A stretch of DNA of 64,000 nucleotides. Origin: a virus. Each line of letters opens with the position of its first letter. Positions within the stretch are counted from its first letter, which is position 1. Positions 21,439-55,711 of the stretch are shown piece by piece. The translations under genes were made by a program, and so were the position numbers. The DNA lies in the IMG/VR virus record IMGVR_UViG_3300049830_000142, positions 1 to 64,000 of that record, one strand, 5' to 3'. Under the pieces are notes generated by a model. It did no database searches. It saw only the letters and a program-made list of their open reading frames with translations, and had not been told where the DNA came from.

Positions 21439-22176
21439 ATGATTAAGTATCGTCTAGGCCGTAAAGCGGCTAAATTTGATAAGCGTACACTACGCCTCGC
21501 CCGTTACCTCGCTCCAAATCTCAAGCCTCCACATAGCATAGCTTGGCAAGGAAAAGTGCAGGACTGGGGTATGATGAAGAACGATGAACTAGGTGACTGT
21601 ACTTGTGCAGCTGCCGGACATTGTATCATGAACTGGACTGCTAACGCTGGTGTGCTTGTCAGACCTTCTGATGAATCAATCTTAACAGCTTATAAGGCAG
21701 TTGGTGGTTATGTGCCTGGCGATCCATCTACTGATAACGGTGCTATTGAACTTGATGTTCTCAAGTATTGGCAGAAGGTTGGTGTTGCAGGTCATAAGAT
21801 TGGTGCATATGTATCAATCAATCCTAAGAACATCCAGCATATGAAGGTTGCTACTTGGTTGTTCGGTGCAGTGTATACTGGTGTTATGCTTACACAAGCT
21901 GACATGGACGCTATTCAATCAGGCAATACTACTTGGAACTACACTAAAGGTTCTTCTATTGGTGGTCATGCTATTCCAGCTTTCGGTTATAATAGCAAAG
22001 GATTTCAATACGTTACATGGGGTGCGGTACAAACCGGTACCTACGAATGGACGTACAATCAGATGGAAGAGGCCTATGCTATCATTAGCACTGACTGGTT
22101 CAATAATCAAGGCAACGCTCCTTCTGGGTTCAACGTCAAACAATTAATGCTAGACTTAGGAGCTATACAACACTAA
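21439..22176 (+). CDS. papain-like (C1-related) cysteine peptidase-fold protein
   Basis: NDELGDCTCAAAGH (Cys), GGHAIP (His), VTWG; N-terminal RLGRK..DKRTLRL propeptide-like stretch. Confidence 0.55.
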   Translation: MIKYRLGRKAAKFDKRTLRLARYLAPNLKPPHSIAWQGKVQDWGMMKNDELGDCTCAAAGHCIMNWTANAGVLVRPSDESILTAYKAVGGYVPGDPSTDNGAIELDVLKYWQKVGVAGHKIGAYVSINPKNIQHMKVATWLFGAVYTGVMLTQADMDAIQSGNTTWNYTKGSSIGGHAIPAFGYNSKGFQYVTWGAVQTGTYEWTYNQMEEAYAIISTDWFNNQGNAPSGFNVKQLMLDLGAIQH

Positions 22177-22859
22177 TGCTAAGTAGACCTGAAAAGATTT
22201 CGAAGCTAAAACAATGGCTTAACCACACTAAGTTGGATAAGGACATTGTTAAGAGTAATGTAGGAGTTGAGGACGATAAGATTAGTCCTCAAGTGTTACT
22301 TGCTAGCTCAGCTAAGCTAATCAAGATCAACAAAGGTGAAGCAGAACCTGATGATCGTGATAACTTGAAGTTCAGTAAATTCATGGGTATTGAAGATTTC
22401 GTAGAGGAACATATCCAACGTGACGCTTCCAAGATACAACAGAAGGCTGCTTACAAGATGCAGATGAAGAAGAATCTTAGCTGGCTTACACCAGGCTTTT
22501 TCACTCCTCAGATCAGGTCAGTTATCATTGGTAACTCTTTAGCTAACAACGTAGACGGTATTAACCCTCTAGAACATTGGGATAATAGTCACAAAGTCAC
22601 TAAGATGGGTCCTGGTGGTATTCCTAGCACTGACGCTATTCCTCCAGAGTCTCGTAACGTAGCACCATCCTCATTCGGTTTCTTTGATCCAGTACACATC
22701 TCTGAGTCTGAAAAGATCGGTGTCACTAGCTATATCAATCACAACGTAGCTAAAGGTGACGATTGCAAGCTATACCGAGTCATGAAGACTAAGCATGGCT
22801 TGAAGTGGATGGACCATGAAGACGTTTTAAGTAAACAAGTACACATTCCAGAATACTAA
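22176..22859 (+). CDS. RNA polymerase beta subunit, middle fragment
   Basis: NPLEHWDNSHKVTKMGPGGI..ESRNVAPSSFGFFDPVHISESEKIG matches the RpoB fork-loop/rifampicin region (NPL..KRR.SALGPGGL..EVRDVH.SHYGR.CP.ETPEG.NIG). Confidence 0.85.
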   Translation: MLSRPEKISKLKQWLNHTKLDKDIVKSNVGVEDDKISPQVLLASSAKLIKINKGEAEPDDRDNLKFSKFMGIEDFVEEHIQRDASKIQQKAAYKMQMKKNLSWLTPGFFTPQIRSVIIGNSLANNVDGINPLEHWDNSHKVTKMGPGGIPSTDAIPPESRNVAPSSFGFFDPVHISESEKIGVTSYINHNVAKGDDCKLYRVMKTKHGLKWMDHEDVLSKQVHIPEY

Positions 22860-23248
22860 CCAGCTTGTAAATAGTTGATCATGCTTTTTAGAATACATAC
22901 GTTATCTTTAGCGTATCCTAGTCCTAAATTACAAGGTTTACAAAGCAATCCCCTTACTTTTCCTGTTGTGTGATCATGGTCTACGTTTAATTTATATCTT
23001 TCACCTACGTTGCCACAAATTTTACATTTACCTAGTTGTAAATCAAACAATTTATCGTAATCTTCAATAGATAATCCATAACTTGTCTTTAGTTCATAAG
23101 CACGGGTAATTTTCTTAACTTTTTCAGGATTTTTAACTCGCCAATTTTTGCTATTACGAATTTTTTGTTTTGAATTAAGCTTATAATACTGTTTCCACTT
23201 TAGCTTATTCTTACTGTAGTAATCTTTATTATATTCTCTAGTGTTCAT
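22856..23248 (-). CDS. endonuclease VII-family HNH nuclease
   Basis: CKICG..LNVDHDHTTGKVRGLLCKPCNLGLG. Confidence 0.88.
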   Translation of the reverse strand: MNTREYNKDYYSKNKLKWKQYYKLNSKQKIRNSKNWRVKNPEKVKKITRAYELKTSYGLSIEDYDKLFDLQLGKCKICGNVGERYKLNVDHDHTTGKVRGLLCKPCNLGLGYAKDNVCILKSMINYLQAG

Positions 23249-23253
23249 AAGTA

Positions 23254-24219
23254 TTAAAGCGCTATCAAAGGTCTTACTGAAGTAAAGTAGTCCTTCTTAG
23301 TAATATCCGCTACATCTGTAAAGTAGAACTGCACTAATCCTGTAGTAGCTCCTGAAGGCATTAGAAATGTGGCTATGTCTTTTACGGCATCTGTTCCAGT
23401 TCTGGATGATGTCAGTACAAACTTCGTATCACTTGCTACAGTACCCTTTGTAATTGGTGCTGAAACTCCGGCTATCAAGATCTGAGATAAATCAGCAAAT
23501 CCAGTTCTATGGGCTGTGCTGTCATAGGTTGAACTAACTGCAGGACAAGTGATGCTAACGCTATCTCCTGCGTAAGCACCGTCTACTGAGAAGTAGATGC
23601 TGTCTATGCGCTCTGTCAATCTTAGCGATGATCCTAAGTCAGATACATTGCTAATACTGTATTGAGGAGAGCTAGCTACTCCATGGTAACCTATAGATGG
23701 TAATGCACCTGACTTAAAGGACGGAAATCCCTGTAACACTATTCTACCATCAGCACCAGTGTTTACAGCTTGAGCTAAGTAAGCTGTAGCTGAACCAGAG
23801 CCTGCAACTCTAAATTGTGTTTGAGGTAAGAATGCATAAAGCTTTCTACCTGCTACAGTAGTGATGCCTGGTGTCCCTTTACTCATATCTGTAGTAAACT
23901 GTACCGTAGCTCCACCTGCTTGAACAGCATCGAATCTGACTGGACAGATATTATTCTCTTCTACTTGTCTCCTTTTAATCAAGTTATGCGCTGTGACAGA
24001 ACCGAAGTCTATCAAGAAGCCATCTGTAGTCTCATAAAAGCAGAGCAGGCTAAAGTACATCGACTTAACACATCTTCCAAAGAAGAACGCTTGATCTGCA
24101 TATAGAGCTGGTTGTCTAACTGGATTAGTGTCAGAGGTAGTGCTCAATGCTAAGTGTAAAGGATCGATGTTCGACCCGTCAAACGGAGCATACTGAGATT
24201 CGTGGATTACTTCCTGCAT
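23254..24219 (-). CDS. probable tail/baseplate structural protein
   Basis: Ser/Thr/Gly-rich, beta-strand-like sequence. Start at ATG 24219 gives a TAATG overlap with the upstream gene. Confidence 0.5.
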   Translation of the reverse strand: MQEVIHESQYAPFDGSNIDPLHLALSTTSDTNPVRQPALYADQAFFFGRCVKSMYFSLLCFYETTDGFLIDFGSVTAHNLIKRRQVEENNICPVRFDAVQAGGATVQFTTDMSKGTPGITTVAGRKLYAFLPQTQFRVAGSGSATAYLAQAVNTGADGRIVLQGFPSFKSGALPSIGYHGVASSPQYSISNVSDLGSSLRLTERIDSIYFSVDGAYAGDSVSITCPAVSSTYDSTAHRTGFADLSQILIAGVSAPITKGTVASDTKFVLTSSRTGTDAVKDIATFLMPSGATTGLVQFYFTDVADITKKDYFTSVRPLIAL

Positions 24220-27200
24220 TAGAATAGAGGAGTGTTGATCGTACAATACGGTGCAGTACTAAACTCCGGATAAATAGCCATCCAGTTGATACGAGGGTTA
24301 GCAGTCCTATTTATGTTTGCTGGAGGATTAGCTGGGTCATACCTAAAGCTATTTTGGTTCTCATGAGTATTGACAGTAGGGATTGAACCATCCAATGTAT
24401 AGTAGATATGAATGTTGTTTGATTTGACACCTATAGCTAGCTCAGTTGTAATACCTACTGGAGTGTAGGTTGGTGCCAACTGAGTCAATAAAGTAATCAA
24501 ACTCTGTTGTAAAGCTGAGTTAGGGGCAGTAGAGTATGCGAATGCATCAACTTTAGCGTTGTGACTACCTGGAGCGGCGGCAGAAAACGTAGGTGTTGAA
24601 TTACTTTGTATAGCATCAGTACTAATCATGTTACCAATCGTCGTATCAATAGCGGGAACTATAATCTTCAAAGGTACTGAGTTATTGTTTGTAGCCCTCA
24701 AAGTTAAGTGAGAGTGTGTCATCTGTTTTACAGCGTAGCTTGTGCTAGCTGCGTTGACTAACGAGACATGGCTACCTAAACTTTTACTAACTGTCACACC
24801 ATTCAAAGGAGCTGTAGGAATGTTGTATTCGGCATAAGCAATAGGTATGTAAGCCTTGAATTGATAATTAGTCGTATCAGATGATCCTCTAGCTTTGATA
24901 GCGTTTAGAGCTGCCTTCTGCAACTGTATTAAGTCTTGTGCTACGTTATTATCGATGCCTACGATTTGAGCTACAGAACTGTTGTAGTAGTTTTGCAAAT
25001 CTGTTGTGCTAGCTGCTGATGCTTGAGCAGGTGTCAAAAGCTTGTAAGTCGTAGTTGTGGCCGGTATGTAGTTTCTGCTACTACTCTGTCCTATATCAAA
25101 GTCTTTGGCTAATCCACGGCATACGGCAGCATAAACAACATTAGTCTCACCAAAGTAATTAGTAGGAGCGAATACTACTTCAAGGTAAACGACATGACCT
25201 GGACTCATCTTGAATGGGGTATCGAGACCAAAGACATGATAACGACCTATTGAAGCTTCACCGTTAAATAGATAAGACTGCGGTACAACCTTGACGTATT
25301 CAGTAGAGTCAGTAGCTGTGAAAGCTGTATTGACTGTTGTGAACTGCGCTGGATCGATTGTTTCCTTGCACTTGACTACGCCGAAAGGAGGGATGATAGC
25401 TCCAGGCACGCTCAAGAACTGTTCTTTCCATTTACCTTCAGCATCGGCAGTTCCTGGTTCAGTAGTAGTATTGGCTAGTGCATTGAAACTAGCTTTATCA
25501 CCTTCAGGGTAAACCATGGTGACGGAACTGTTACTATTGTATCCACTATTACTGTTGTTACCATTGTTACTCCAAGATGCGCTGCCAATACCTGTTCCAC
25601 TTCCTCCTCCACCTCCTCCACCTCCACTAAAGGAAGTCAAGTCTAGTACACCGGAGATAGCTAATGAACAGAAAGGTTTAGTAGGATCAGCAGAGACTAA
25701 CTTAAGATTATTTTGCTGTATTGCTCCACTAGCCGTAGCAACTGTCAGTGTAATCGGCTGTCCTGCGAAAGGTCCTGCAGTGTAAGTTGTCGGGTTAAGA
25801 CTAAAACTATCGCAGTTCAAAGCAGGTATGTGAATCTGTGAAGATGTAAATTCGTAATCACATAAGCTAGCTGCGTGCATCTGTAATGTTGCAGTGCTCC
25901 AAGTACTAGGATTATTTGTAGGACCAATACTGATCGTGACTGGGTTTTGTCCTATTGTGAGGTTAGCACAAGAGGCTATCGGAGGTAGTCCTAAGTTTAG
26001 TTCACCGCTTAGTTCAAATCCGCATTGAGTCTTACCGCTAGTTACGGTTGTGACTTTCTTTAACTCAATCGCGTTGTAGCGAGTCAAGTTATTCGGATTA
26101 TCTGGAGTAGTAATGGGTAAGCTATAGTTACTGTTCAACTTTACGTTGACTGAGTTACTAGCTACAAATCCACCATCGCAAACTGGTATAGGTAGGTTAA
26201 CAGTCGTACCATTCCAAGAACATGGGGCAGCAGGGTCACGCATACCGCCTGCATCAGTTAAGTCAATGTTAGAGCTGATTGCTGCTGGAGTATTGCCTGA
26301 GTCATCTGCAAAAGCGTAACCTGCAAAAGAAATTGGATCATTGAATTGAATACCGTTAGGGTAACAAGGAATGTCTATTGGTGGCGGTGTAAGTGTAATG
26401 TGACACAAATCTGGCTTTGTTACCGAAGTAGTTAAACTATGAGTGCCTCCAAAATATGGATCGCTGATTACCCAAGGAGCTACAGTTAGTACTGGACCAG
26501 TGTCTTTACAAGGGATGTCAATTAGTATTGGTCCACCACCAAAGTTGAATTGACAAGGTACTGAGTTTGATTGTGTAACCGAGATTGATGATGTGTGCGT
26601 AGAACTGTTGACTGAATCAGTAATTGTGAAGTCAACACTACCACTTACATTAGGTCCATCTGGGTAACAAGGGATGGTCAACGGAGGTAAGGTCAGATCA
26701 AAGGAACAGCTATTATCTGGATCTGGGGCTAAAGTAACAATTGACCTGTCTACGACTGGACCTGTAGGGCTTGTCCTAATGTCTAGAGGTGCGTTCTTAA
26801 AGGATATACCATCTGGGCACGGTATCTGAGGTAAATTGATTACAGGGTCGCCAACAAACTGCCAGTTACAAGGAACGTCATGGTCTTTGACAATAGCTAG
26901 GCTAGTAGTGACGACAGTACTTTGGTTTGGGTCTACGACAGTAATCGTTGCAGTACTACTTAACTGCGGACCAGTAGGAAAGCATGGTATGACAACGGGT
27001 GGAAAGTCTATGTTAAAGTTACAGACTGAATCTGCTTGAGATGCTCCGACAGTAATAGAACCTGCTGGTGTATTACTAACAATATCGCTTACTTGCGCGA
27101 AGATACTAACAGGAGTCGGGTTAAAGCTAATACCATTTGGGCAGTTCTCAGGCAAAGGAAATGGGTCAACAACTAAAGGAAACTCAATAAAGAGTGGTAA

Positions 27201-27374
27201 ACAAGTTTTTACATTGTTTGGTGGTGTGATTGACCCTAATGGAGTGGGAGGCGCAACTAATGTAGGTAGCGCACAGTTGATAGTCGGCTTATCAGAAACC
27301 GAAGTTGAGATGTACTGAGCTTGACGATTCGCTTCATTGACGATCGTGATCAAACTGGCAATTGGATTACTCAT
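24219..27374 (-). CDS. large Cys/Pro-repeat structural protein (fibre/adhesin-like) with a C-terminal YYTLDGS.PT domain
   Basis: About 8-9 repeats of C-x-[FWI]..P..[IL]PC, a poly-Gly hinge, and a C-terminal IYYTLDGSIPT (chitobiase/Fn3-associated-like motif). Confidence 0.55.
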   Translation of the reverse strand: MSNPIASLITIVNEANRQAQYISTSVSDKPTINCALPTLVAPPTPLGSITPPNNVKTCLPLFIEFPLVVDPFPLPENCPNGISFNPTPVSIFAQVSDIVSNTPAGSITVGASQADSVCNFNIDFPPVVIPCFPTGPQLSSTATITVVDPNQSTVVTTSLAIVKDHDVPCNWQFVGDPVINLPQIPCPDGISFKNAPLDIRTSPTGPVVDRSIVTLAPDPDNSCSFDLTLPPLTIPCYPDGPNVSGSVDFTITDSVNSSTHTSSISVTQSNSVPCQFNFGGGPILIDIPCKDTGPVLTVAPWVISDPYFGGTHSLTTSVTKPDLCHITLTPPPIDIPCYPNGIQFNDPISFAGYAFADDSGNTPAAISSNIDLTDAGGMRDPAAPCSWNGTTVNLPIPVCDGGFVASNSVNVKLNSNYSLPITTPDNPNNLTRYNAIELKKVTTVTSGKTQCGFELSGELNLGLPPIASCANLTIGQNPVTISIGPTNNPSTWSTATLQMHAASLCDYEFTSSQIHIPALNCDSFSLNPTTYTAGPFAGQPITLTVATASGAIQQNNLKLVSADPTKPFCSLAISGVLDLTSFSGGGGGGGGSGTGIGSASWSNNGNNSNSGYNSNSSVTMVYPEGDKASFNALANTTTEPGTADAEGKWKEQFLSVPGAIIPPFGVVKCKETIDPAQFTTVNTAFTATDSTEYVKVVPQSYLFNGEASIGRYHVFGLDTPFKMSPGHVVYLEVVFAPTNYFGETNVVYAAVCRGLAKDFDIGQSSSRNYIPATTTTYKLLTPAQASAASTTDLQNYYNSSVAQIVGIDNNVAQDLIQLQKAALNAIKARGSSDTTNYQFKAYIPIAYAEYNIPTAPLNGVTVSKSLGSHVSLVNAASTSYAVKQMTHSHLTLRATNNNSVPLKIIVPAIDTTIGNMISTDAIQSNSTPTFSAAAPGSHNAKVDAFAYSTAPNSALQQSLITLLTQLAPTYTPVGITTELAIGVKSNNIHIYYTLDGSIPTVNTHENQNSFRYDPANPPANINRTANPRINWMAIYPEFSTAPYCTINTPLF

Positions 27375-27762
27375 GTTTCAATTTAACTAAAATACCGTAG
27401 CAAACTAAGCTGAAGAACATAGTCAATAGTATAGCTGGTACTACGAAAAGTACAGGCCATAAATATAGCAATGTAAAAATGAACATGATAGGTACCGTCA
27501 GAAATGCTGAAGTCCAAACACAGATACATTTAGGGCATACAAACAATTTTGTAAGAAAACTGTTGTAGTTGGCGCTAAGGTACTGGGTGTAATGTAATGT
27601 CTGATCGTCTACTGTAGCTTCCTTGTACTCATTTACATGAAAGAATTTACCTAGACTAAACAAACTGACGTATTCTACGAAAGCGTTTGTCTTGAACCAG
27701 ATATACAGGAGCGATGAATTGATGGCCCCAAGTAGAAAGAAAAGTATGAGTAAGTCGCACAT
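27367..27762 (-). CDS. membrane protein with a CPxC motif (DUF1360-like)
   Basis: 2-3 hydrophobic helices flanking FVCPKCICVW. Confidence 0.6.
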   Translation of the reverse strand: MCDLLILFFLLGAINSSLLYIWFKTNAFVEYVSLFSLGKFFHVNEYKEATVDDQTLHYTQYLSANYNSFLTKLFVCPKCICVWTSAFLTVPIMFIFTLLYLWPVLFVVPAILLTMFFSLVCYGILVKLKHE

Positions 27763-27822
27763 AAATAGCGAGCCGGCATATCTTAATGATACACCGGCTC
27801 TAGGTCTGGTTAAAGGCTAAAC

Positions 27823-28020
27823 TTAAGCCTCTTTCTGAGCACTAGCAGTATCAGCATCTTCTTCATCCATGACTGCTTTGATCTCTTCATCGATGCGTTT
27901 AACGTTCTCACTGTGTAGTTTAGCTGCCTCTTTCTTTTCAGTTAAGGCTTCCAGGCGTTCCTGGGTTAGGTTAAATACACGTGTCTTACGGTCTGCTCCT
28001 TGCTTAGGTATTGTTGGCAT
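27823..28020 (-). CDS. small coiled-coil protein
   Basis: 65 aa, charged helical sequence, 2 bp from its neighbour. Confidence 0.6.
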   Translation of the reverse strand: MPTIPKQGADRKTRVFNLTQERLEALTEKKEAAKLHSENVKRIDEEIKAVMDEEDADTASAQKEA

Positions 28021-28022
28021 GA

Positions 28023-28289
28023 TTATTTAGTTGATTCAGACTTCTCTTCGACTTTAGGGGCTTCTACTGTCTTGTTGAGCAGGTCTAGGATGAGCTGCTT
28101 CTGTCCAATCAAGATCAATTGCATGCGTTTAGCTTCGTTTGTTTTGCTAGTCAAGTCGTCAATGGTAGACTGAAGATTTGCCAATGACGAGTCTGCTTGA
28201 CCTAGGTAGGTTTGAAGCGTCTTTACAGTGTCTGCAATTGTCATCTTGAAGACTGGGGCTTGCGCCGTATCGGTTGTTGATTCACTCAT
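28023..28289 (-). CDS. small coiled-coil protein
   Basis: 88 aa with heptad-like pattern; downstream of a sigma70 promoter. Confidence 0.65.
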   Translation of the reverse strand: MSESTTDTAQAPVFKMTIADTVKTLQTYLGQADSSLANLQSTIDDLTSKTNEAKRMQLILIGQKQLILDLLNKTVEAPKVEEKSESTK

Positions 28290-28312
28290 AATTTGTGGTT
28301 ACTGTATTTGGA

Positions 28313-28340: not shown

Positions 28341-28343
28341 ATG

Positions 28344-28378: not shown

Positions 28379-28394
28379 AGAGTTAAGGGTTGAA

Positions 28395-29366: not shown

Positions 29367-30065
29367 TTATTCTTCTTCAGCGCCTATTACTTTATGGTAA
29401 AACTTATCTAACTCACCACCAGAGTAGTGTTCTTTGTTCTTCAGCAAGATTTCTTTCCCCCATACTTCTTCCATATCTTTGTCTGGAATACCCATGTCCC
29501 TTAGCAATCCGTAGAGTTTGATTTCAGTTGTGCCTACTCTATAAACGAAAAGAGCTCGATCTGGGTAAAAAATTACTTTGCCACCAACTCCAGTACCAGG
29601 TACTACGTTAACGTGGGCTTCAGCTTCTCCTGATTCCTTAATACGAGTATAAACACCAGGCTTTAGTCTTTGCTGAGCTGATACTACATACTCTGAACCG
29701 TTCAAAATAGTCGTGTTGCGATCGGTCAACCAAGGTATATGAGCTATTGTAGTGGTCTTAGTATCAAGAACTTTACCCGTCTTTTTGTCGATCATCTCAA
29801 ACGTACCTCTTAAAGGGTTGGAGATGTCACGCTTTTCCATGATAGCTTTGTTTTGTTCTTTGTAGGTTGGAGCATGTTCAGGAAAATTAAAATGCAGATC
29901 AGTGACCTTAAGTCTGTACGCCGGGCTTTCGACTTTGTTCAGATGCTTTTGAAAGGCAGCTAAAGCTTTGTCATGCAGCCAACCTCTAGTCTTCTCAGGG
30001 TCAAAGAAGCCTCTAGCATTCTTAGGCAAAGGTAGACTGTAAAGAGGGTTGATGTTCGTATTCAT
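29367..30065 (-). CDS. RNA polymerase beta subunit, N-terminal fragment
   Basis: IAHIPWLTDRNTTILNGSEYVVSAQQRLKPGVY matches RpoB G.IP.MT..GTFIINGTERVIVSQL.RSPGVY; also LYGLLRDMG. Confidence 0.8.
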   Translation of the reverse strand: MNTNINPLYSLPLPKNARGFFDPEKTRGWLHDKALAAFQKHLNKVESPAYRLKVTDLHFNFPEHAPTYKEQNKAIMEKRDISNPLRGTFEMIDKKTGKVLDTKTTTIAHIPWLTDRNTTILNGSEYVVSAQQRLKPGVYTRIKESGEAEAHVNVVPGTGVGGKVIFYPDRALFVYRVGTTEIKLYGLLRDMGIPDKDMEEVWGKEILLKNKEHYSGGELDKFYHKVIGAEEE

Positions 30066-45863: not shown

Positions 45864-45889
45864 AAAGGGGACTGCAAACCCTTTTTTTT
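45864..45889. terminator. probable bidirectional terminator
   Basis: AAAGGG..CCC followed by T8 at a convergent junction. Confidence 0.55.
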
Positions 45890-47696
45890 AGCTAAGAGGA
45901 TTCCTAGACCAGTAGTTCTGATCTCCCTCAGTCATCATGTGGAGGATCTCGTCATTCATCTGCTCTTTACGATTAGCCAAAGCTCTGATGTATTGATCAA
46001 CACCACCCGGCTGTTTATTAAACGTCATTCTATCCCAGAAAGAAGGCTGTGGTTGGGCTAAGTAACGTTGCACTAGTAGATTCTGTTTATCGGCTGGCAA
46101 GTCGTCATGAGAGTGGAAACGAGCACCTCTACCAATGATCTGCTTTTCCTTAGCTACATTAAAGTGTGGGTCAAGCATCTGGATTAATCTAGTACCTCTA
46201 AGATCCAATCCTTCTGCACCAGCTGAGCTAATTAGCAAAGCCCTTATCTTATTAGCATTGTAATCCCTGACCATCTGCTCACGTTGTGCTGGGTTAACAG
46301 CACCTGAGAACTCGCCATAAGGAATGTTGTTCTTTTGCAACAGCTGTTCATAAGGCTTTAGACCACTCTGCAAATAGTTACTATAGACCACACCTTTATA
46401 ACTAGGGTCTTTAGCCATCTGTTGTTTAAGGAAACGGAAAGCATTGTCAATCTTAGGCTGCTGTAACTCATTCTTTCTAGTAGTGAAACCAGAGGTAGTA
46501 TTACTAACCTGTCTCACACCTCCTAAGAATGCTCGCATAGGCTCGAGCTCACCTTTACCTGGGGGCAAACCATTCCTGACTTTCCATCTCACCCACCAAG
46601 GAGCTTTACCCATGATAGAGTTGTAGATGTCTTGTTGATGCTGACCCATAGGCACAGCAACTTCTTTTTCAGTTACACTAGGGTAGCCTTCGTGTGGCGC
46701 GGCGTAGTAGTCTACGTACTTATCTAAAACTTTCTTCAACTCATCTCTGTTTTGAAGATGTTGTTCAACACCAGGCTTAACACCCATGAGCTTTCCTAAG
46801 ATACCTGGACTGACTTCCTCTTGCTTAAAGTACTTTTGATTGAAAGCTCCGGGAGAAGAAGGCAACACATCTTTACCAGCCGCTAAGTTAACTATGTTAG
46901 CTAAATCTGCTGGATTGTTATAGAGTGGTGTGCCTGAGAGTAGTAGACGTTTCTTAGGATGAGTCCTCTGAAGAGCTTGGTAAAGCTGGCTATTAGGATT
47001 ACGAGCTTTCTGCACTTCATCTACAATCTGTAATCCTTTATCATACATCGGAGTCTTGAGAGTGGGGTTCGCCAATCTCTGCTGACTTACGATGTTGACG
47101 TCTCTCGGAACACTACCTGTCCACTTCCTAAGCTCTTTACGATAGTTTTCTTGTAGAGCTGCTGGAACAACTACGTCAGTCGGCATCTTCAAAGACTTAT
47201 AGGCTTCGATACTAGACTTAGTTTTACCTGAACCAGTAGAATGAAATAGTACTAAACCTCTAGTACCTGGCTGATTAATCTTACGGACTACTCTAGCTTG
47301 TTGAGGAGGCATGTTAGCATCCCTCTCCTTGTCAAACTCAGTCCAGTCAGCTTTCTTTATAGCTCTATTACTTAACTGACGGTTACCTCCAATTACGGGG
47401 TAACCTTGGCGTCTCAATTTTTTAGCTAACAGTTCTTCAGCCTTCTCAGCTTCAAAGAAACTTAGTCTATTCTTATGAAATTCAGGTCTTAGCTTCAGAC
47501 CATGATTCTTCACCCAAGTGTTAGCTTTCAAGCCTTCCTTATGTTTCTTAAACCTTTCTTCAGCAGAAAGGCCGGACATACCTACGTAGAGCGGAGGTTT
47601 GTCTGGGTTATAGCTAGGATTAAGATCTCGTACTTTTTTTCTGTCTAGTACTTTCTTATCCAACTCAACCACATAAACGTTGTGAATTCCTGCCAT
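45888..47696 (-). CDS. GIY-YIG-like domain fused to an SF2 (SNF2-like) helicase
   Basis: VYVVEL..LYVGMSG..EERFKKH; then HSTGSGKT, IVDEVQ, LSGTP, SSAGAEGLDL, QIIGRGAR. Confidence 0.8.
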   Translation of the reverse strand: MAGIHNVYVVELDKKVLDRKKVRDLNPSYNPDKPPLYVGMSGLSAEERFKKHKEGLKANTWVKNHGLKLRPEFHKNRLSFFEAEKAEELLAKKLRRQGYPVIGGNRQLSNRAIKKADWTEFDKERDANMPPQQARVVRKINQPGTRGLVLFHSTGSGKTKSSIEAYKSLKMPTDVVVPAALQENYRKELRKWTGSVPRDVNIVSQQRLANPTLKTPMYDKGLQIVDEVQKARNPNSQLYQALQRTHPKKRLLLSGTPLYNNPADLANIVNLAAGKDVLPSSPGAFNQKYFKQEEVSPGILGKLMGVKPGVEQHLQNRDELKKVLDKYVDYYAAPHEGYPSVTEKEVAVPMGQHQQDIYNSIMGKAPWWVRWKVRNGLPPGKGELEPMRAFLGGVRQVSNTTSGFTTRKNELQQPKIDNAFRFLKQQMAKDPSYKGVVYSNYLQSGLKPYEQLLQKNNIPYGEFSGAVNPAQREQMVRDYNANKIRALLISSAGAEGLDLRGTRLIQMLDPHFNVAKEKQIIGRGARFHSHDDLPADKQNLLVQRYLAQPQPSFWDRMTFNKQPGGVDQYIRALANRKEQMNDEILHMMTEGDQNYWSRNPLS

Positions 47697-48458: not shown

Positions 48459-48464
48459 ATTTAT

Positions 48465-48500: not shown

Positions 48501-48508
48501 ACGTTAAT

Positions 48509-51466
48509 ATGCGCTATACTGTATTAGACAAAGGCAACTTCAAGAAAGTAGATAAGCTGGACGACGACCATCTATCATTTCCTAGTTCCCGAGACCTATT
48601 TTCCATGCCCAGTAACCTTATCACAGGATTGGGTGGTGTGTCTGGTGGTCGTATTTTGCTAGGTGCCAAGGCTTCACTACAAAGCATTCCTCTAGTCAAC
48701 CCAGAAAGACCTTTAGTAGAAAGCTCAGATGACAATGACAAAGAGAGTACTCAAGAAAAGTTTGGTAAGCATTATCTGTCAGTCACGGCTACAAAACCTG
48801 GTATAGTTGATGAAGTGACTGATGAGCATATCAAAGTAAAGAATAAGGATGGTAGTCACAGTACTTATCAGCTTTACAAGAATTTTAACTTAGGACGTAA
48901 AAGCTTCATTACTAACACTGCGATAGTGAAGGCTGGTCATCAAGTGAAGACAGACGAGGTGTTGGCTCACTCCAACTACACCGACCCTAAAGGTAACATG
49001 GCATTAGGTGTTAATTTGACTACCGCTATCATGCCATTTAGATCCGACAACTTCGAGGATGCTTATGCTGTGACTGAGTCAGGTGCTAAAAAGTTGGCAG
49101 CGGAACAGATGCTAAAATATCATCTAGAAAAGAAATTTGGTGTTGATGCAGACAAGAATAAATTTATTGCGCTATTCCCAAACAAGTATACCAATGATCA
49201 AATCAAAGGTATTGACTCTGATGGTGTAATCAAACCTGGTACTGTAGTTCATGCAGGTGACCCAGTTCTATTAGCTTTTTCTCCTAGAGCACTTAAAAGC
49301 ACAGACTTAGCATTAGGTAAACTAAGCAAAGTATTGAAGCACGCTTTCAAAGATAACTCTGAGATCTGGGACTATGAACATCCTGGTACAGTCGTAGATG
49401 TATCTAAGCACGGTGAGTTGATTACAGTTCACATTAAAACTGAGCGTAGTCTATTACCTGGTGATAAGATTGGTAGTATCTTCGGTGCAAAAGGTGTAGC
49501 CACAATTATACCAGACTCACAATCTCCGACTACTCCTGATGGCAAGCCTGTGGATATTATGCTTAACTCAATGAGCATTACATCTAGAGTAGCCCCAGCT
49601 CTAGCCGTTACACTAGGACTAGGCAAACTAGCTCAAAAGAAAAAGGAAGTGATCAAGATGGACCAGTTCACTAAAGAATCGTCAATTGGTAAAGTTCTTA
49701 AAGTACTGGCCAAGAATGACATTTCAGATACCGAGACTGGTAGGAATATTGAGGCTGTTGTTGGACCTCTTTATTATAATCGTCTTACTCACATCTCTGA
49801 GGACAAGCTCAGTACGAGGTCGCAGGGTACAGGCTACTCGTTCGACATGCAGCCTAGCAAAACGACTGGCGAATCTAGTAAAAGGATCGGTAACCTTGGT
49901 ACTACTGCCTTGCTTAGCCATGATGTTAAACATGTATTGGAAGACATTGGTACCGTTAAAGGTACAAAGAACGATGATTTCTGGAGAGCCCTTAAACTAG
50001 GCCAGACTCCACCACCACCTAAAGTACCTTTCATTTTCAACAAGTTTATTGCTAGCTTACAGTCTGCTGGGGTAAACGTGAAACGAGATGGCAGTGTATT
50101 TAACATCATGCCAATGACCGACAAGGATACGTTGGCTATCAGTAATGGTGAAATCAAAAAGCCTACGATGTTCAAACCTCATCAAGATGAACTAGTGCAT
50201 GAACCAGGTGGTCTATTCGATCCTAATACAGTCGGTATCTTGGGTGACAAGTTCAATCATATTAGTCTTAACCATTCCGTACCTAATCCTATCAGCGAAG
50301 ACTATCTTCGTAAATTGTTAGGAGTCACTAAACTCAAGTTTAATGCTATGGTGGTAGATGGTACGATGGAAAAAGAATTAGGCAAGATGAACCTCGACAA
50401 CAAGATTACTGAAATGCGTCAGTATATCGAGGGCGGTAAAAAGACTAAACGTGATGATGCTGTAAAGATTTTGGAATTTTTGACTACGTTAAAGAAGAAG
50501 GGTATCAAGATTAGCGATTTGATGTTGACCAAGATTCCTATCTTACCAGCACAGTTCAGACCAGCTAGTAAGATGGGTGACGTTGTATTGACTAGCGATG
50601 TAAACAACCTTTACAAAGATCTTATCCTAAATAACAATTCTTTGAAAGATACGGCACATATACCTGAAGAGTTGATCAGCAAACTAAAGCAAGATCAGTA
50701 TGACGGTGTAAAGGCTGTGTTTGGTTTGGGTGATCCTATTAATAAGAAGCATGCTGATAAGAATGTAAAAGGTATCTTAGCTACTATGCTAGGTCTAAAA
50801 GGCGGTACTGCTAAATCAACGATGTTCCAGAGCAAGGTCGTTAATAAATCATTGGACTTAGTAGGTAGAGCAGTTTTGACTCCTGACACTAGGCTAGACG
50901 TGGATCAAGCTAGCGTCCCTCAAGATTTGCTGTGGCAGGTATACAAACCTTTCGTAATTCGTAGATTAGTCATGAAAGGCGTCCCAGCTGTATCTGCTGT
51001 AGACTATGTCAAAAAGCACAGTTCGTTGGCAGTTCAAGCTTTGAAAGAAGAGATGGCTGAGAGACCTGGTATTGTAACTCGTGACCCAGCTTGGCACAAA
51101 TTTAACTTGATGGGTTTTCATCTCATCCCTAATCCTAATCCTAAGGACAAGACACTAAAACTAAACCCATTAGTGTTCAAAGGATTCGGTGCTGACAACG
51201 ACGGTGACCAGCTAAACATCCACGTACCGGCTACTGAAGAAGCTAGGAAAGAAGTATTGGCAAAAATGTTACCTAGCAAGAACTTGTTATCAGCCAAGTC
51301 ATTTAGCCCAGTACTCATTCCATCAAACGAATCAGCTCTAGGTTTATATTCGCTTAGCACTGAGAAGAATACTAAAGCAGCCCGTAAATATAAGACGGAG
51401 GCGGAGGTGGTGAAAGCCTATAACTCAGGTCACTTAGAAGAGGGTGACCAGATAGAAATAGGATAA
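48509..51466 (+). CDS. RNA polymerase: beta C-terminal part fused to beta' N-terminal part, containing the catalytic site
   Basis: Beta: GRILLGAKASLQSIPL, MPFRSDNFEDA, GDKIGSIFGAKG, YYNRLTH..KLSTRS. Beta': GGLFDP, IPILPAQFRP, SDVNNLY, RDPAWH, GADNDGDQ. Confidence 0.93.
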   Translation: MRYTVLDKGNFKKVDKLDDDHLSFPSSRDLFSMPSNLITGLGGVSGGRILLGAKASLQSIPLVNPERPLVESSDDNDKESTQEKFGKHYLSVTATKPGIVDEVTDEHIKVKNKDGSHSTYQLYKNFNLGRKSFITNTAIVKAGHQVKTDEVLAHSNYTDPKGNMALGVNLTTAIMPFRSDNFEDAYAVTESGAKKLAAEQMLKYHLEKKFGVDADKNKFIALFPNKYTNDQIKGIDSDGVIKPGTVVHAGDPVLLAFSPRALKSTDLALGKLSKVLKHAFKDNSEIWDYEHPGTVVDVSKHGELITVHIKTERSLLPGDKIGSIFGAKGVATIIPDSQSPTTPDGKPVDIMLNSMSITSRVAPALAVTLGLGKLAQKKKEVIKMDQFTKESSIGKVLKVLAKNDISDTETGRNIEAVVGPLYYNRLTHISEDKLSTRSQGTGYSFDMQPSKTTGESSKRIGNLGTTALLSHDVKHVLEDIGTVKGTKNDDFWRALKLGQTPPPPKVPFIFNKFIASLQSAGVNVKRDGSVFNIMPMTDKDTLAISNGEIKKPTMFKPHQDELVHEPGGLFDPNTVGILGDKFNHISLNHSVPNPISEDYLRKLLGVTKLKFNAMVVDGTMEKELGKMNLDNKITEMRQYIEGGKKTKRDDAVKILEFLTTLKKKGIKISDLMLTKIPILPAQFRPASKMGDVVLTSDVNNLYKDLILNNNSLKDTAHIPEELISKLKQDQYDGVKAVFGLGDPINKKHADKNVKGILATMLGLKGGTAKSTMFQSKVVNKSLDLVGRAVLTPDTRLDVDQASVPQDLLWQVYKPFVIRRLVMKGVPAVSAVDYVKKHSSLAVQALKEEMAERPGIVTRDPAWHKFNLMGFHLIPNPNPKDKTLKLNPLVFKGFGADNDGDQLNIHVPATEEARKEVLAKMLPSKNLLSAKSFSPVLIPSNESALGLYSLSTEKNTKAARKYKTEAEVVKAYNSGHLEEGDQIEIG

Positions 51467-51496
51467 TTGTAGACTACGACAAATTTCCCTGGTATT

Positions 51497-51721
51497 ATGA
51501 TTGTAACTAAAGACTTGTGGCTCACGCTCACTCCAAAACAAAGGTTGGAGAAGTTAACGGAAGCCCTCTCACAATTGAAAGAAATTGGCACAAAGAATAG
51601 TAGACTCAAGGTAAAAGTTGACCAAGGAAGATTGGCCAACGCTAAGAAAGACCTCGAAGCTTTTGTGATTAACGTCGTGACCTGGGAATCTGATAGACAG
51701 CTACAAAAATATCATGGATAA
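51497..51721 (+). CDS. small hypothetical protein
   Basis: 74-aa helical ORF overlapping the HNH start. Confidence 0.55.
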   Translation: MIVTKDLWLTLTPKQRLEKLTEALSQLKEIGTKNSRLKVKVDQGRLANAKKDLEAFVINVVTWESDRQLQKYHG

Positions 51722-52217
51722 AGTTTGCCATAAGTGCGATGAATCAAAACCAACGACAGAATTTCGTAATAGAAAATCTGCAGCGGATGGCTTATCCTAT
51801 TATTGTAAGAGTTGCCTACAAACTAATGACAAGGGTTACTACAAGAAAAACCATGCAAAGTGTATACAAGCTGGTGTGAAATATACACGTAATCGTAGAA
51901 AAACAGATATAACCTTTAGATTACGTGCATTACTGAATAACAGAACTAGAATAGCAATAACGTCCAATTTGAAACAATCAAGTACAATTAAACTGCTTGG
52001 ATGTACCATCCTACAAGCAAGAAAATACATAGAGTCGCAATTTAAGCCTGGTATGAATTGGAGTAACCATTCATTAACAGGTTGGCACATTGATCATAAA
52101 TTACCTTGTGCAGCCTTCGATTTAACGAAAGAATCAGAGCAAAGAAAGTGTTTTCATTACACTAATCTCCAACCTCTTTGGGCTCATGAAAATCTTTCAA
52201 AAAGTGATAATATTTAA
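51714..52217 (+). CDS. HNH endonuclease
   Basis: CHKC..YYCKSC; FKPGMNWSNH..WHIDHKLPCAAF..CFHYTNLQPLWA.ENLSK. Confidence 0.88.
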   Translation: MDKVCHKCDESKPTTEFRNRKSAADGLSYYCKSCLQTNDKGYYKKNHAKCIQAGVKYTRNRRKTDITFRLRALLNNRTRIAITSNLKQSSTIKLLGCTILQARKYIESQFKPGMNWSNHSLTGWHIDHKLPCAAFDLTKESEQRKCFHYTNLQPLWAHENLSKSDNI

Positions 52218-52219
52218 TT

Positions 52220-52849
52220 ATGCCAACATACGGACAAATTCTACAAGATTTAGATTGCTCACTTACTAAGCGAGCTTTCATTCCTTCTCCAACTGGTGGA
52301 GGCGGTGGACAACCTGGACAGCAACCACAAGGTGGACAGCCTCCTGGTCAAGGCGATCCAGCACAGCAACAGGAGATGCAACAATTTGCACAACAAATAC
52401 AACAACAGCAAGCGGCTCAAGGTGGGCAAGGCGGTCAACAACCACAAGGTCAGCCAGGTCAAGGTGACCCTTCTCAAGGCAAGCCTCAAGATCCTAATGC
52501 ACCTCCTGGAGGCGATCTATCTCCTAAGGGTATGGCTCAGAGTTTGAAGAACACTGCAGTAACAGTTACTGTAGCGGACTTGCTCGACCTCGTATCTGGT
52601 GGCAAGGCAAGTCAAGCACATCTCAAGACTGAATCAATGAAAGTCCAACACGGCTTTAAGCACAGGGAGATGTTGCAGAAGGAACAGGACAAACAGCAGC
52701 AGAAAGAACAGGAACGCCAGCAGCAGGCTCAGATGCAGGCTCAACAGCAGCAAGGCATGATGGGCGGCGGTATTTATGGCGGCGGCCCAATGGACGGGCA
52801 AAATGCTCCTGGACAACCAGGTCAACCACCTCAACAAGGAGGCATGTAA
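52220..52849 (+). CDS. Gln/Gly/Pro-rich low-complexity protein
   Basis: LTKRA leader; QPGQQPQGGQ-type tracts flanking a short ordered core. Confidence 0.7.
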   Translation: MPTYGQILQDLDCSLTKRAFIPSPTGGGGGQPGQQPQGGQPPGQGDPAQQQEMQQFAQQIQQQQAAQGGQGGQQPQGQPGQGDPSQGKPQDPNAPPGGDLSPKGMAQSLKNTAVTVTVADLLDLVSGGKASQAHLKTESMKVQHGFKHREMLQKEQDKQQQKEQERQQQAQMQAQQQQGMMGGGIYGGGPMDGQNAPGQPGQPPQQGGM

Positions 52850-52852
52850 TTT

Positions 52853-53479
52853 ATGGATAAGCTAGAACAAGGATACATCGACGGATTTGTTAAAGCTGCA
52901 AATGCACTTAGCGCAGGTATTGTGGCCGGCGTTAAACAACCTATGGAAAGCGCTGAGTCAGCTATAGCTAGGCTACAAAGTCAGAAAACAAAAGATTTCG
53001 TTATGCCTAATAGGAAAAACTTGCTAGGCCAACCTTTAAGTGGTGGTCCTGGATTAAATGCTCCTAACGGTATCAAAGATAAGTTGCATAGCCTATGGAA
53101 TGACCCTAAGAGCAATACTATAGGTGACATGTCATTAAGGAAAGCTACTGGATTAGGTGCAGGATTAGGTGCAGGAACAATTGCAGCTAGCCAAGGTGCA
53201 GGTGCTCTAACCTCAGGTATGGGTGGACATCCTTCTGACTTAGCCCAACGTACTCAAGAAGCTACGCAAGGTCCTTCTATTGATCCTAGTGGTCTTTATG
53301 AAATGCTAAAGCAACATCTGTCTAAACATGAAGTAGGTTACGGTGTAGGTGGTGCAGCTCTTGGTTTAGGTGGCTTAGGCTACTACTTGAGCAAGCATAA
53401 AAATAAAAAGAAAATAGACGAAGGTCAAATACCTTTTAGCTCAGGCGAAGACGAACCAGGCGTAGAGACCAATGAATAA
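52853..53479 (+). CDS. probable virion protein with K-x-A leader and glycine zippers
   Basis: GYIDGFVKAA; GLGAGLGAG; GVGGAALGLGGLGYYL. Confidence 0.6.
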   Translation: MDKLEQGYIDGFVKAANALSAGIVAGVKQPMESAESAIARLQSQKTKDFVMPNRKNLLGQPLSGGPGLNAPNGIKDKLHSLWNDPKSNTIGDMSLRKATGLGAGLGAGTIAASQGAGALTSGMGGHPSDLAQRTQEATQGPSIDPSGLYEMLKQHLSKHEVGYGVGGAALGLGGLGYYLSKHKNKKKIDEGQIPFSSGEDEPGVETNE

Positions 53480-53826
53480 TGAACTTCACTTTACTACAGT
53501 CTTTCTTGGAGCAGTCTTACAACTCAGCCAATCCTAAGATTAAAAGAGCAGCTGAGACTTTGACTGACCAGATGGTGGCCGCTAAAGAGACGGAAGAGAT
53601 TGAGCAGCCGACACTACATTCTGAGGAACGTAATCAGCCGTTGAATAACAGACCTAAGGACGAGATCGATAAACATCTATCTACTTGGATGCCTGATATC
53701 GTAAAACCTGATCCTGAAGTATCTGAATTCGGTAAAGCGGCTTCTATGTTTGACTTATACAGTAAAAAGTTGAATACTAAGCCTACACTATTTCAAAGAT
53801 ATGGCTTACACAACAACGGTAGGTAA
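53479..53826 (+). CDS. hypothetical protein with K-x-A motifs
   Basis: IKRAA, GKAA; TAATG coupling. Confidence 0.6.
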   Translation: MNFTLLQSFLEQSYNSANPKIKRAAETLTDQMVAAKETEEIEQPTLHSEERNQPLNNRPKDEIDKHLSTWMPDIVKPDPEVSEFGKAASMFDLYSKKLNTKPTLFQRYGLHNNGR

Positions 53827-55711
53827 AATCCTACTGAAACATTACAGTCCGGCGGCGACACACGCATTCCTAGATAGTAAGGAGCTTGACAAAAAGAACA
53901 TCGGAGCTTTCTTTGCTAACTTAGCTGAGAAGCATCCGGAGGAGTACATGAAGACTGTCTCTGACCTAACGAGACTAGGCTTCGAGTCAGCTACTAGATT
54001 AGGTAGCACAGTTAGACTAGGCGACCTTGCTCCCCCAGATTTCAAGGACGAGGAGTTCAAAAAACTTCACGCCGAGATCGCAGGTATTCAGGCTAAGAAA
54101 CTTACTAAGGTAAAACAGAATGACGAAATCATTACTGCCCTTAACAAGTTCTCAGGCGACATTGACAAAAGGTTAGTTGAGCATGGTGTCAAAGAAGGTA
54201 AGACATTGGCGAAGGTTGTTAGGGCCGGTGCTCGTGGTAGCCCATCCCAGTATCGTCAAACTATTTTTTCTCCCGTAGCTGTCAATGATAACAAGGGCAG
54301 CGTTCTTACTGATTTCGTAATCGACAGGTCTTTTGCTGAAGGCCTCACCTTACCACAATACTTGGCGCATACCTTCGGTGCTCGTCAAGCTTCTGCAGCT
54401 ACTAAACTAGCTGTTGCTGACGCTGGTTACTTAGGTAAACAATTGGCCAGAGCTGGTATGACGATGAAAGTCGAGATGCATGACTGTGGTACTGATAGTG
54501 GTATTGCAATCAAAGTCGAAGACAAAGATTACCTCGGTACTTATTTAGCCAAGGCGGTTGATAAATATAATCATAACAACGAAGTCACTTCTTCGATGTT
54601 AGCTGACCTCAAAACAAAAGGGGTTGCTGACATTATTGTCCGTAGTCCTATCACTTGCCAAGCTAGTCACGACTCTCATCCAGGTGCAGTATGCCAACTA
54701 TGCGCAGGTAGACGTGAAAAAGGATTACCTGAGATTGGATCTTTCTTAGGAGTTGTGGCTGGAACTACTTTAGCTGAACCGCTATCACAAGGTATGTTAA
54801 ACTCCAAACACTCTGGTGGTTCAGCGAGAACTGCTACGTCATTTGGCGGTTTCAAATACGTTAACCAACTATTCAACATACCTGACTCTTTTGTACATGA
54901 GGCTCCGCTAGCTAACCATGACGGTGTTATTGAAGAAGTCAGACCAGCTCCTCAAGGTGGTAACTATGTCGTAGTCAAACATGTTAACGGCAAGACTGAA
55001 GAACACTACGTTCATCCTGACCTCAACGTATTCATCAAACCTGGCACTGCTGTCGAAGCCGGTGATGTATTAAGTGATGGTATTCCTAATCCAGCCAAGA
55101 TCGTTAAACACAAAGGTATTGGTGAGGGTAGAGTCTACTTTGCTAACGCAGTAAAGAATACATTTGAAAACAGCCAGCTAGGTGGTATCAACAAACGTAA
55201 CTTTGACATCATCAGCAAAGGTATCATTACGCACGTCAAAATTACCAACCCTAAAGGGTTGGGCGACCACTTGCCAGATACTATCGTCAATTACCATAGT
55301 TTAGAGAAGGCTTATACTCCTAGACACGATAGCCGCAAAGTTAGAGTAGACCAGGCAAAGGGATTATACTTGGAAATTCCTGCATTACACTATACAATAG
55401 GTACTAAGCTAACAAGCCATATGATGGACAACCTAAAGAAGCATGGTGTATCATATGTGACAGTACACGATGACAGTCCTGGGTTTGAACCTGAGATGCA
55501 ACGTTTGCTAGATGTTCCAGCCCACGAGCATGATTGGATGCACGCGCTGTACAGCACAAATTTGGAACGCAGATTAGTTAAAGCAGTTAATACTGGAGCT
55601 TCAAGCAGTATTGCTGGCCCTTCGCCTATACCTGGCCTGGCTTATGCCGTCGGCTTTGGTAAGAAGTCTGAGGAAGTCGAGCAAACTGAAGAAGCCTTAA
55701 GTTTCGAATAA
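53801..55711 (+). CDS. RNA polymerase beta' subunit, C-terminal fragment
   Basis: TTVGK, GARGS, SFAEGL..GARQ..ADAGYL (bridge helix), HDCGT..CQLC (zinc), AEPLSQGMLNSKHSGG (trigger loop). Confidence 0.92.
   Translation: MAYTTTVGKILLKHYSPAATHAFLDSKELDKKNIGAFFANLAEKHPEEYMKTVSDLTRLGFESATRLGSTVRLGDLAPPDFKDEEFKKLHAEIAGIQAKKLTKVKQNDEIITALNKFSGDIDKRLVEHGVKEGKTLAKVVRAGARGSPSQYRQTIFSPVAVNDNKGSVLTDFVIDRSFAEGLTLPQYLAHTFGARQASAATKLAVADAGYLGKQLARAGMTMKVEMHDCGTDSGIAIKVEDKDYLGTYLAKAVDKYNHNNEVTSSMLADLKTKGVADIIVRSPITCQASHDSHPGAVCQLCAGRREKGLPEIGSFLGVVAGTTLAEPLSQGMLNSKHSGGSARTATSFGGFKYVNQLFNIPDSFVHEAPLANHDGVIEEVRPAPQGGNYVVVKHVNGKTEEHYVHPDLNVFIKPGTAVEAGDVLSDGIPNPAKIVKHKGIGEGRVYFANAVKNTFENSQLGGINKRNFDIISKGIITHVKITNPKGLGDHLPDTIVNYHSLEKAYTPRHDSRKVRVDQAKGLYLEIPALHYTIGTKLTSHMMDNLKKHGVSYVTVHDDSPGFEPEMQRLLDVPAHEHDWMHALYSTNLERRLVKAVNTGASSSIAGPSPIPGLAYAVGFGKKSEEVEQTEEALSFE

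Follow-up and report, generated by a model that had tools for sequence, protein, structure and literature searches.

We describe here a multisubunit RNA polymerase (RNAP) that is encoded in four separate open reading frames (ORFs) of a metagenomic phage contig. The stretch of DNA analysed (the window) is 64,000 nucleotides long and comprises positions 1-64,000 of the 134,588-bp IMG/VR record IMGVR_UViG_3300049830_000142. The record is classed as linear, has a CheckV completeness of about 62% and carries genes for the large terminase, the portal, the major capsid protein and a ribonucleotide reductase as well as other phage genes; the closest cultured relatives of its phage genes are those of Salmonella phage Arash. 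The polymerase is distributed over beta-N (29367-30065, minus strand, 232 amino acids), beta-M (22176-22859, plus strand, 227 amino acids), a fusion gene which joins the C-terminal part of beta to the N-terminal part of beta' in a single frame of 985 amino acids (48509-51466, plus strand), and beta'-C (53801-55711, plus strand, 636 amino acids). The strand of beta-M is opposite to that of the surrounding operon. All statements on absent genes made below are limited by the incompleteness of the record.

Four reading frames that tile one polymerase

The window and the whole 134.6-kb record were searched by tblastn with the two polymerase proteins of Arash, gp206 (1525 amino acids, all of beta fused to beta'-N) and gp216 (606 amino acids, beta'-C). 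Residues 36-227 of gp206 fall on 29933-29370 of the minus strand, residues 233-469 on 22188-22853 and residues 484-1525 on 48533-51463 of the plus strand, while residues 2-599 of gp216 fall on 53801-55660. Neither protein has a further match elsewhere in the 134.6-kb record, and hence the four pieces abut in subunit order with no part missing or doubled. The pieces belong to the same family as the Arash polymerase, at 27-31% identity. A first-pass annotation of the window had read the locus as a polymerase cut into four intein-free genes on both strands, with the pieces abutting in subunit order and one gene fusing the C-terminus of beta to the N-terminus of beta'. The data bear this out, as the ORFs lie at the positions given there and leave no spare length for an intein, the Arash proteins tile them in order, and domains of both subunits share one frame. 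The annotation had also named missing or duplicated regions as the mark of fragments from different polymerases; the alignment reveals neither. Being the products of four separate intein-free genes, the chains must, as it had further proposed, assemble in trans.

By Pfam, the fusion chain carries Rpb2_6 (residues 95-450, 1.7e-39) followed by Rpb1_1/Rpb1_2 (residues 647-918), beta'-C carries the end of Rpb1_3 together with Rpb1_5, and beta-M has weak matches to Rpb2_3 and Rpb2_2. Pfam fails to recognise beta-N, which nevertheless hits the beta-like PHROG 24349 (profile positions 77-202); a profile built from its relatives (A1) aligns to solved bacterial beta chains at about residues 72-208. Among PHROGs, the pieces match best to families of full-length beta-like and beta'-like proteins and much more weakly to phiKZ-type families.

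A profile made from the concatenated pieces and unsplit relatives was searched against E. coli RpoB and RpoC. It covers residues 51-228, 420-932, 1048-1140 and 1177-1338 of the 1342 residues of RpoB, which amounts to all of beta except for the lineage-specific insertions SI1 and SI2. Of RpoC it covers residues 31-63, a weak but collinear match, and 160-551; beta'-C adds 622-952 and 1131-1288, which implies that SI3 is absent. Coverage of the two subunits is full and collinear, and only SI1, SI2, SI3 and the zinc ribbon of beta' are lacking. In E. coli numbering, beta-N corresponds to about residues 1-230 of beta, that is, to the N-terminus and the first parts of protrusion and lobe, and beta-M to about residues 385-615, the second part of lobe and protrusion together with the fork region (its profile, A2, matches E. 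coli beta 418-597). The first ~529 residues of the fusion chain (48509-50095, plus strand) correspond to about residues 620-1338 of beta without SI2; they match solved C. difficile beta at 622-1157 and hold the flap, the beta catalytic barrel and beta's own C-terminal motif. The remainder of this chain, from about residue 530 to residue 985 (50096-51466, plus strand), corresponds to about residues 20-551 of beta' without the N-terminal zinc ribbon, matches E. coli beta' at 176-522 and includes the clamp helices and the beta' catalytic barrel. Beta'-C extends from about residue 570 of beta' to its C-terminus, without SI3.

The catalytic motifs of both subunits are retained. The G-x-K-G of beta is kept as G-A-K-G at residues 326-329 of the fusion chain, in alignment with the relatives, and the catalytic Mg loop of beta', G-A-D-N-D-G-D (residues 894-900 of the fusion chain; 51188-51208, plus strand), has all three aspartates, D-x-D-G-D being invariant in 13 sequences (the window and 12 relatives). 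Beta' lacks the N-terminal zinc ribbon, and no cysteine occurs anywhere in the fusion chain, while the four cysteines of the second zinc site are retained in beta'-C. A larger loss of some 160-175 N-terminal residues of beta' was considered and rejected, as the alignment and the RpoC profile show the N-terminus to be present: only the zinc ribbon and part of the following stretch are absent, with about 30 profile positions replacing residues 64-159 of E. coli beta'. A direct phmmer search of the junction region of the fusion against solved structures gave no match.

The first cut, between beta-N and beta-M, lies in the lobe at the position of SI1 in E. coli, the second, between beta-M and the fusion chain, at about residues 615-625 of E. 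coli beta, just ahead of the flap and barrel half, and the third, between the fusion chain and beta'-C, at about residues 551-570 of E. coli beta'. When the concatenated pieces are aligned with unsplit homologues, the end of beta-N and the start of beta-M are both found within one variable linker, and beta-M ends directly after a conserved P-E-Y/H, with the fusion chain starting about 10 residues later in a variable loop. Both beta cuts are thus placed in variable linkers, with at most 10 residues lost and no extra domains. Beta'-C starts about 20 residues upstream of the start of cyanobacterial RpoC2, residue 9 of RpoC2 aligning with residue 18 of beta'-C. At the fusion joint the C-terminal motif of beta runs directly, almost without a linker, into the G-E-I-K-K-P segment of the beta' N-terminus. 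Both small genes begin within the end of another: the ATG of beta-N overlaps the stop codon of its upstream ORF, and that of beta-M the stop codon of the ORF at 21358-22176 (TAATG in either case), which suggests translational coupling of beta-N and beta-M.

The split in related phages

A scan of IMG/VR viral contigs with the fusion protein as single query gave no match, whereas an alignment-based query gave 61 loci. Beta-N stands alone in 22 of them, those in which its identity to the window is at least 42%. The fetched stretch includes beta-M in 15 of these 22, each time as a single gene at a distance of 5-8 kb and encoded on the other strand. The fusion gene is visible as well in 12 of the 15; it lies 7-10 kb from beta-N in the other direction, likewise on the strand opposite to beta-N, so that order and orientation are those of the window. 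Nearly all of the 39 loci of lower identity instead contain one frame of about 1460-1500 amino acids with all three parts, followed by beta'-C, like Arash and Vibrio phage D69; the exceptions are a locus with another layout of pieces (L035) and one that ends just past beta-N (L056). A separate beta'-C gene with the same start point occurs in 30 or more IMG/VR loci. In metagenomes, stand-alone beta-N forms at least 160 homologue clusters. Among the best 120 of these, all but one are 216-286 amino acids long, identities range from 53 to 92%, and the contigs reach 293 kb.

The locus L035 is part of a 23-kb contig from a distant lineage (G010). There, an ORF of 495 amino acids (1263-2750, plus strand) comprises beta-N and about 230 extra residues, and the adjacent ORF of 557 amino acids (2916-4589, plus strand) comprises beta-M with an in-frame intein and ends at the boundary of the window's beta-M. 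The beta-C part, with another intein, is found 13 kb away (L069, 5368-8370, plus strand) and begins where the fusion gene of the window begins. Such a layout may represent an independent fission or an intermediate one.

In a quick IQ-TREE phylogeny of the beta-N plus beta-M region, rooted at the midpoint, the 14 split sequences make up one side of a branch with a support of 100 in the Shimodaira-Hasegawa-like approximate likelihood ratio test (SH-aLRT). They are sister to one fused clade, and the other fused clades, Arash and the Vibrio phages among them, lie outside their branch. As judged from these sequences, the fusion and the beta' cut appear to be the ancestral layout of a large phage family that is common in metagenomes, and only the two extra cuts, which free the N-terminal ~460 residues of beta, would be particular to the sub-clade. 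The first-pass annotation had taken the whole cut pattern for a distinct RNAP architecture. This holds for the two extra cuts in beta, but the fusion and the beta' cut are common to Arash and Vibrio phages with sequences in GenBank and to dozens of IMG/VR contigs, and the window is therefore a further-split variant rather than a wholly distinct architecture.

Probable assembly of the four chains

Searches with the alpha and omega families PF01000, PF01193 and PF01192 gave no match in the 134.6-kb record, while the controls matched in 14 of 14 genomes. In a record that is about 62% complete, this makes the absence of alpha and omega probable. Neither alpha nor sigma had been seen in the window by the first-pass annotation, and neither was indeed found there; the same record, however, contains a sigma-70-family gene outside the window (record positions 85478-86116, plus strand, 212 amino acids), which matches Arash gp10 in phmmer at 3.8e-15 and PHROG 351 at 2.8e-15. 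The neighbours of this gene are homologous to the Arash structural genes gp13 and gp14, and the sigma-like gene is kept in all five split-clade genomes checked, at about 47% identity. Within the window, a gene for an SNF2-type helicase (45888-47696, minus strand; Pfam SNF2-rel_dom and Helicase_C) is homologous to Arash gp217 (35% identity, 1e-90), and its product is probably an accessory factor of the polymerase. In Arash the gp217 gene follows beta'-C and its product has been found in virions (PMC10585845).

Taken together, these data make it very probable that the four ORFs encode the sole multisubunit RNAP of the phage, and that its four chains assemble without splicing. In such an enzyme the 985-residue chain would hold both catalytic barrels, the end of beta running straight into the start of beta', and the covalent link between the two would most likely replace the absent alpha-dimer assembly platform. 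Beta-N and beta-M would interlock into the protrusion and lobe of beta and dock on the fusion chain, and beta'-C would supply the trigger-loop, the jaw and its half of the clamp. Promoter recognition would probably be carried out by the phage's own sigma-70-family factor, the gp10 homologue at 85478-86116, with the SNF2 helicase as a likely accessory. As to its origin, we suggest that an Arash-type ancestor with two genes (beta::beta'-N and beta'-C) suffered two clean cuts in variable linkers of beta and that the pieces were dispersed and inverted after these cuts.

But could beta-N and beta-M not have become free regulators that, for instance, modify the host polymerase or act on it as decoys, instead of serving the phage enzyme as subunits? 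Both are expressed from units separate from that of the catalytic chain, and their co-assembly with it is itself a prediction. The phage enzyme would then, however, be left without protrusion and lobe, and the residues conserved in the two pieces are those conserved in unsplit enzymes. Moreover, the predicted complex of beta-M and beta-N has a score of 0.78, as compared to 0.00 for the best control, and thus passes a mark that is reached by 58 of 80 solved complexes and by 2 of 110 mismatched pairs. The runs share at least 93% of contacts, the predicted local distance difference test (pLDDT) value of the partner is 87, and the interlocked interface comprises about 360 contacts, as is expected if beta-N and beta-M jointly build protrusion and lobe. 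Then again, the prediction may reflect likeness to, and memory of, solved RNAP beta structures rather than provide independent evidence. On balance we consider it very improbable that the small chains act apart from the phage enzyme.

Nor do we believe that an rpoB-like gene was broken and left the small pieces as decaying remnants, with a polymerase that is inactive or independent of them. This explanation, which we regard as very unlikely, would fit the scattered location of the pieces beside mobile endonuclease genes and the failure of beta-N to match Pfam. Yet the length of the frames and the position of their ends are maintained in relatives that are 42-92% identical, many residues are invariant, and the ratio of nonsynonymous to synonymous substitution rates (dN/dS) between the window and its relatives is 0.05-0.07 for beta-N and beta-M (about 0.06 for beta-M), with synonymous sites near saturation. 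The split thus appears to be under selection. In addition, the free-standing endonuclease VII/HNH-type gene that abuts the 3' end of beta-M in convergent orientation (22856-23248, minus strand; Pfam Endonuclease_7 at 7e-23, also matched by PHROGs) is absent in two close relatives, L003 and L011. It is most readily seen as a recent mobile insertion and, since it is missing there, not as the cause of the cut.

A normal beta might also be restored after transcription or translation, by trans-splicing or by split inteins. LAGLIDADG inteins are frequent in the unsplit polymerase genes of IMG/VR relatives (L025, L036, L051, L059 and L061), and a close relative of the window has an intein-like insert at the catalytic loop. 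In the alignment with unsplit homologues, however, neither intein halves nor splice elements were found at the ends of the pieces and no junction has spare length; rather, the ends align residue by residue with the linkers of the unsplit proteins. Furthermore, the inteins of the unsplit relatives sit at several conserved sites, never at the window's cut points, and the pieces are separated by 7 and 18 kb and encoded on opposite strands. Such joining is hard to credit in the face of this evidence, and we hold to four chains that assemble as they are translated from their genes.

Some of these inserts deserve mention in their own right. Up to three inteins occur in one gene of the unsplit relatives (L061, a frame of 2773 amino acids), and L025 has one in beta'-C. 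In L045 and L059, BLAST coordinates hinted at an insert near the junction of beta-M and fusion chain; alignment moved it about 40 residues upstream, to the conserved fork motif, and an intein at this junction was rejected as the origin of the split. In two genomes, G006 and G007 (77-79% identical), an intein-like insert breaks the fusion gene at the beta' catalytic loop (about residues 890-900 of the fusion chain). The insert of G006 (L068, G006:C1:55000-60300) is about 480 amino acids long and has Intein_splicing and LAGLIDADG matches. The interrupted gene consists of two ORFs of 931 and 573 amino acids (2239-5034 and 486-2207, both on the minus strand), which are 31 nucleotides apart and do not form a single frame, and the same is found in G007. 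The insert could be a broken intein, an assembly frameshift or an atypically split intein; a search of the interrupted G006 gene for a group I intron gave no Rfam match.

It is likewise very improbable that the pieces stem from two polymerases, like the virion and non-virion enzymes of phiKZ-type phages. Such phages do have enzymes of 4-5 pieces in two sets (PMC7598289), and 38% of the present genome is missing. Against this, the 134.6 kb contain no duplicate of any region of beta or beta', the pieces tile one Arash enzyme exactly, and in split-clade relatives rated 94-100% complete every part occurs exactly once, namely one Rpb2_6 gene (about 1000-1014 amino acids), one beta'-C gene (about 618 amino acids) and one gp10-like sigma in each. 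One complete relative of this clade is 204 kb long and has terminal repeats. The least probable explanation of all is a chimeric or mis-joined contig, for although the record is a linear and incomplete metagenomic contig, the order and orientation of the fusion gene, beta-N and beta-M recur in 12 contigs of other samples, three of which belong to genomes that are 97-100% complete, one with terminal repeats, and beta-N as well as beta-M has a proper start, in each case coupled to the ORF before it. As far as comparison of sequences can tell, misassembly, a pseudogene or a mixture of two polymerases can be excluded with high confidence.

Is the four-chain enzyme carried in the virion? Mass spectrometry of purified Arash virions assigned the most spectra to gp206 (3516, 100% coverage), and gp216, the sigma factor gp10 and the helicase gp217 are also abundant (PMC10585845). 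By analogy, the enzyme of the window might be packaged for early transcription as well, and we put the chances of this at about even. Packaging had already been inferred in the first-pass annotation, on grounds that do not hold up. Beta-N was said to end an operon of virion proteins, but further ORFs on the same strand come after it, and a strong terminator-like hairpin is first met at 28378-28351. Its neighbours gave no usable match in Pfam, PHROGs, the Arash proteins (phmmer) or a protein atlas, and the operon is thereby neither confirmed nor refuted as one of virion genes. Also, the presumed KNA leader (residues 13-15 of beta-N) is not a conserved element, position 13 being D, A, L, E or T in 11 of 20 relatives, and the residues directly behind it, which are invariant, form part of the usual N-terminus of beta.

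Several points weigh against the picture drawn here. The direction from fused to split rests on a quick tree rooted at its midpoint. At a completeness of about 62%, an extra subunit or a second polymerase is excluded by analogy with complete relatives only. The role of the fusion in place of alpha is inferred from engineered and natural beta-beta' fusions, and the enzyme of the split clade is known from sequences alone, with no cultured member. Finally, the case for packaging relies on a relative that is only 27-31% identical, and the neighbours of beta-N are without recognisable function, so that nothing ties the pieces to a virion module.

Neighbouring genes and known systems

The ORF at 21358-22176 (plus strand), which is coupled to beta-M and belongs to PHROG 19005, has no assigned function and appears to be a variable neighbour of beta-M, since in the close relative L003 beta-M is not flanked by it. 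A second free-standing endonuclease VII/HNH-like gene (51714-52217, plus strand; PHROG 1035, 9e-22) lies just downstream of the fusion gene, and a third, of HNH/endonuclease VII type, at 5977-6372 (minus strand). Rearrangement in a gene that is a hotspot of mobile elements would be a reasonable, if unproven, origin of the cuts. A class II (B12-dependent)-type ribonucleotide reductase is encoded at 18175-20157 (minus strand) and kept beside the beta-M region in relatives; Arash has class Ia genes. The homologue of the Arash portal protein gp204 (record positions 133709-134588, plus strand) is cut off by the contig end. The portal gene of Arash lies just upstream of the polymerase gene; in the window, the terminase gene (4189-5895) and some 48 kb of other genes, including beta-M and beta-N, separate the contig start from the fusion gene. 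A scan for promoters and terminators around the pieces found sites to be no commoner than in shuffled sequence, and the regions upstream of the four genes did not reveal a promoter in common.

Natural rpoB-rpoC fusions in Helicobacter and Wolbachia, like engineered fusions in E. coli, also join the C-terminus of beta to the N-terminus of beta'. They consist, however, of two complete subunits and keep alpha, omega and the zinc ribbon, unlike the enzyme of the window. Essential phage enzymes encoded in pieces are likewise known: nrdA of Aeromonas phage Aeh1 and genes 39/60 of T4 were cut by the insertion of homing endonucleases, and the pieces reassemble. Endonuclease genes lie beside the pieces in these cases as in the window, but in the latter they are recent and not conserved at the cuts, and the pieces are spread over 30 kb. 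Cyanobacteria and plastids make beta' as gamma/RpoC1 and RpoC2, divided in the linker behind the catalytic barrel that is also cut in the phage. The phage site is about 20 residues upstream of theirs, and in the phage the N-terminal half is fused to beta.

The closest known systems are those of Arash (gp206/gp216; OQ632216, PMC10585845) and of Vibrio phages D69, D148 and D181, which share with the window the direct beta::beta'-N fusion and the cut point in beta'. Arash in addition has a homologous sigma factor and SNF2 helicase and partly the same gene order from polymerase to capsid. It differs in that the whole of beta is part of the fusion chain and two genes suffice, whereas in the window the first ~460 residues of beta form two extra genes that have been moved and inverted. 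The Arash paper labels gp206 'subunit beta' and does not mention a fusion (PMC10585845). The RNAPs of the jumbo phages phiKZ and AR9 (PMC7598289, PMC7824862) resemble that of the window in that they lack alpha, consist of 4-5 polypeptides equal to beta plus beta', have beta' cut after the catalytic barrel near the cyanobacterial site and exist in a form carried by the virion. They come, however, in two sets, virion and non-virion, have no recognisable sigma and no beta-beta' fusion and are far more divergent in sequence, while the clade of the window has one set, a sigma-70-family factor and the fusion. A phiKZ-like enzyme is ruled out by the single set, the sigma-70-family factor and the direct similarity to bacterial beta and beta'. 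The mReC Caudovirales (Weinheimer & Aylward 2020, PMC7481178) are tailed metagenomic phages whose RNAP, like that of the window, can be aligned directly to cellular beta and beta'. By their description they are set apart, as they have separate beta and beta' of at least 800 amino acids and neither fusion, split nor inteins are mentioned. Reviews of phage multisubunit RNAPs cover the phiKZ/AR9 type, with two sets, 4-5 chains, no sigma and no fusion (PMC7598289, PMC7824862). In the literature searched we found no description of the beta::beta'-N fusion or of its four-gene form.

For the two large subunits of a multisubunit RNA polymerase to come together, alpha or its counterpart in archaea and eukaryotes is generally believed to be required. 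The phage family considered here would provide a natural enzyme in which both barrels reside in one chain and alpha, omega and the first zinc site are gone, yet a sigma-family factor is kept. It is tempting to go further and propose that the beta::beta'-N link replaces alpha in a minimal enzyme devoid of alpha, omega and the zinc ribbon and that, at the same time, the cutting of lobe and protrusion is adaptive, the pieces serving as exchangeable regulatory subunits. As a whole we find this doubtful. If adaptive, cutting could time or gate the assembly of the enzyme, or help it enter the capsid at packaging and leave it at ejection; beta-N would be made along with one operon, beta-M from a gene that stands by itself on the other strand. 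The alternative is a neutral accident of gene rearrangement. In either case the four-piece sub-clade would map where beta tolerates cuts, at the SI1 site of the lobe and ahead of the flap and barrel half, and such a map may be of use for understanding the modular assembly of RNAP and for the engineering of split polymerases. Since Arash is cultured, has the two-gene form and carries the enzyme in its virion, assembly without alpha, promoter recognition with a phage sigma factor and the injection of a 170-kDa chain should be directly testable.

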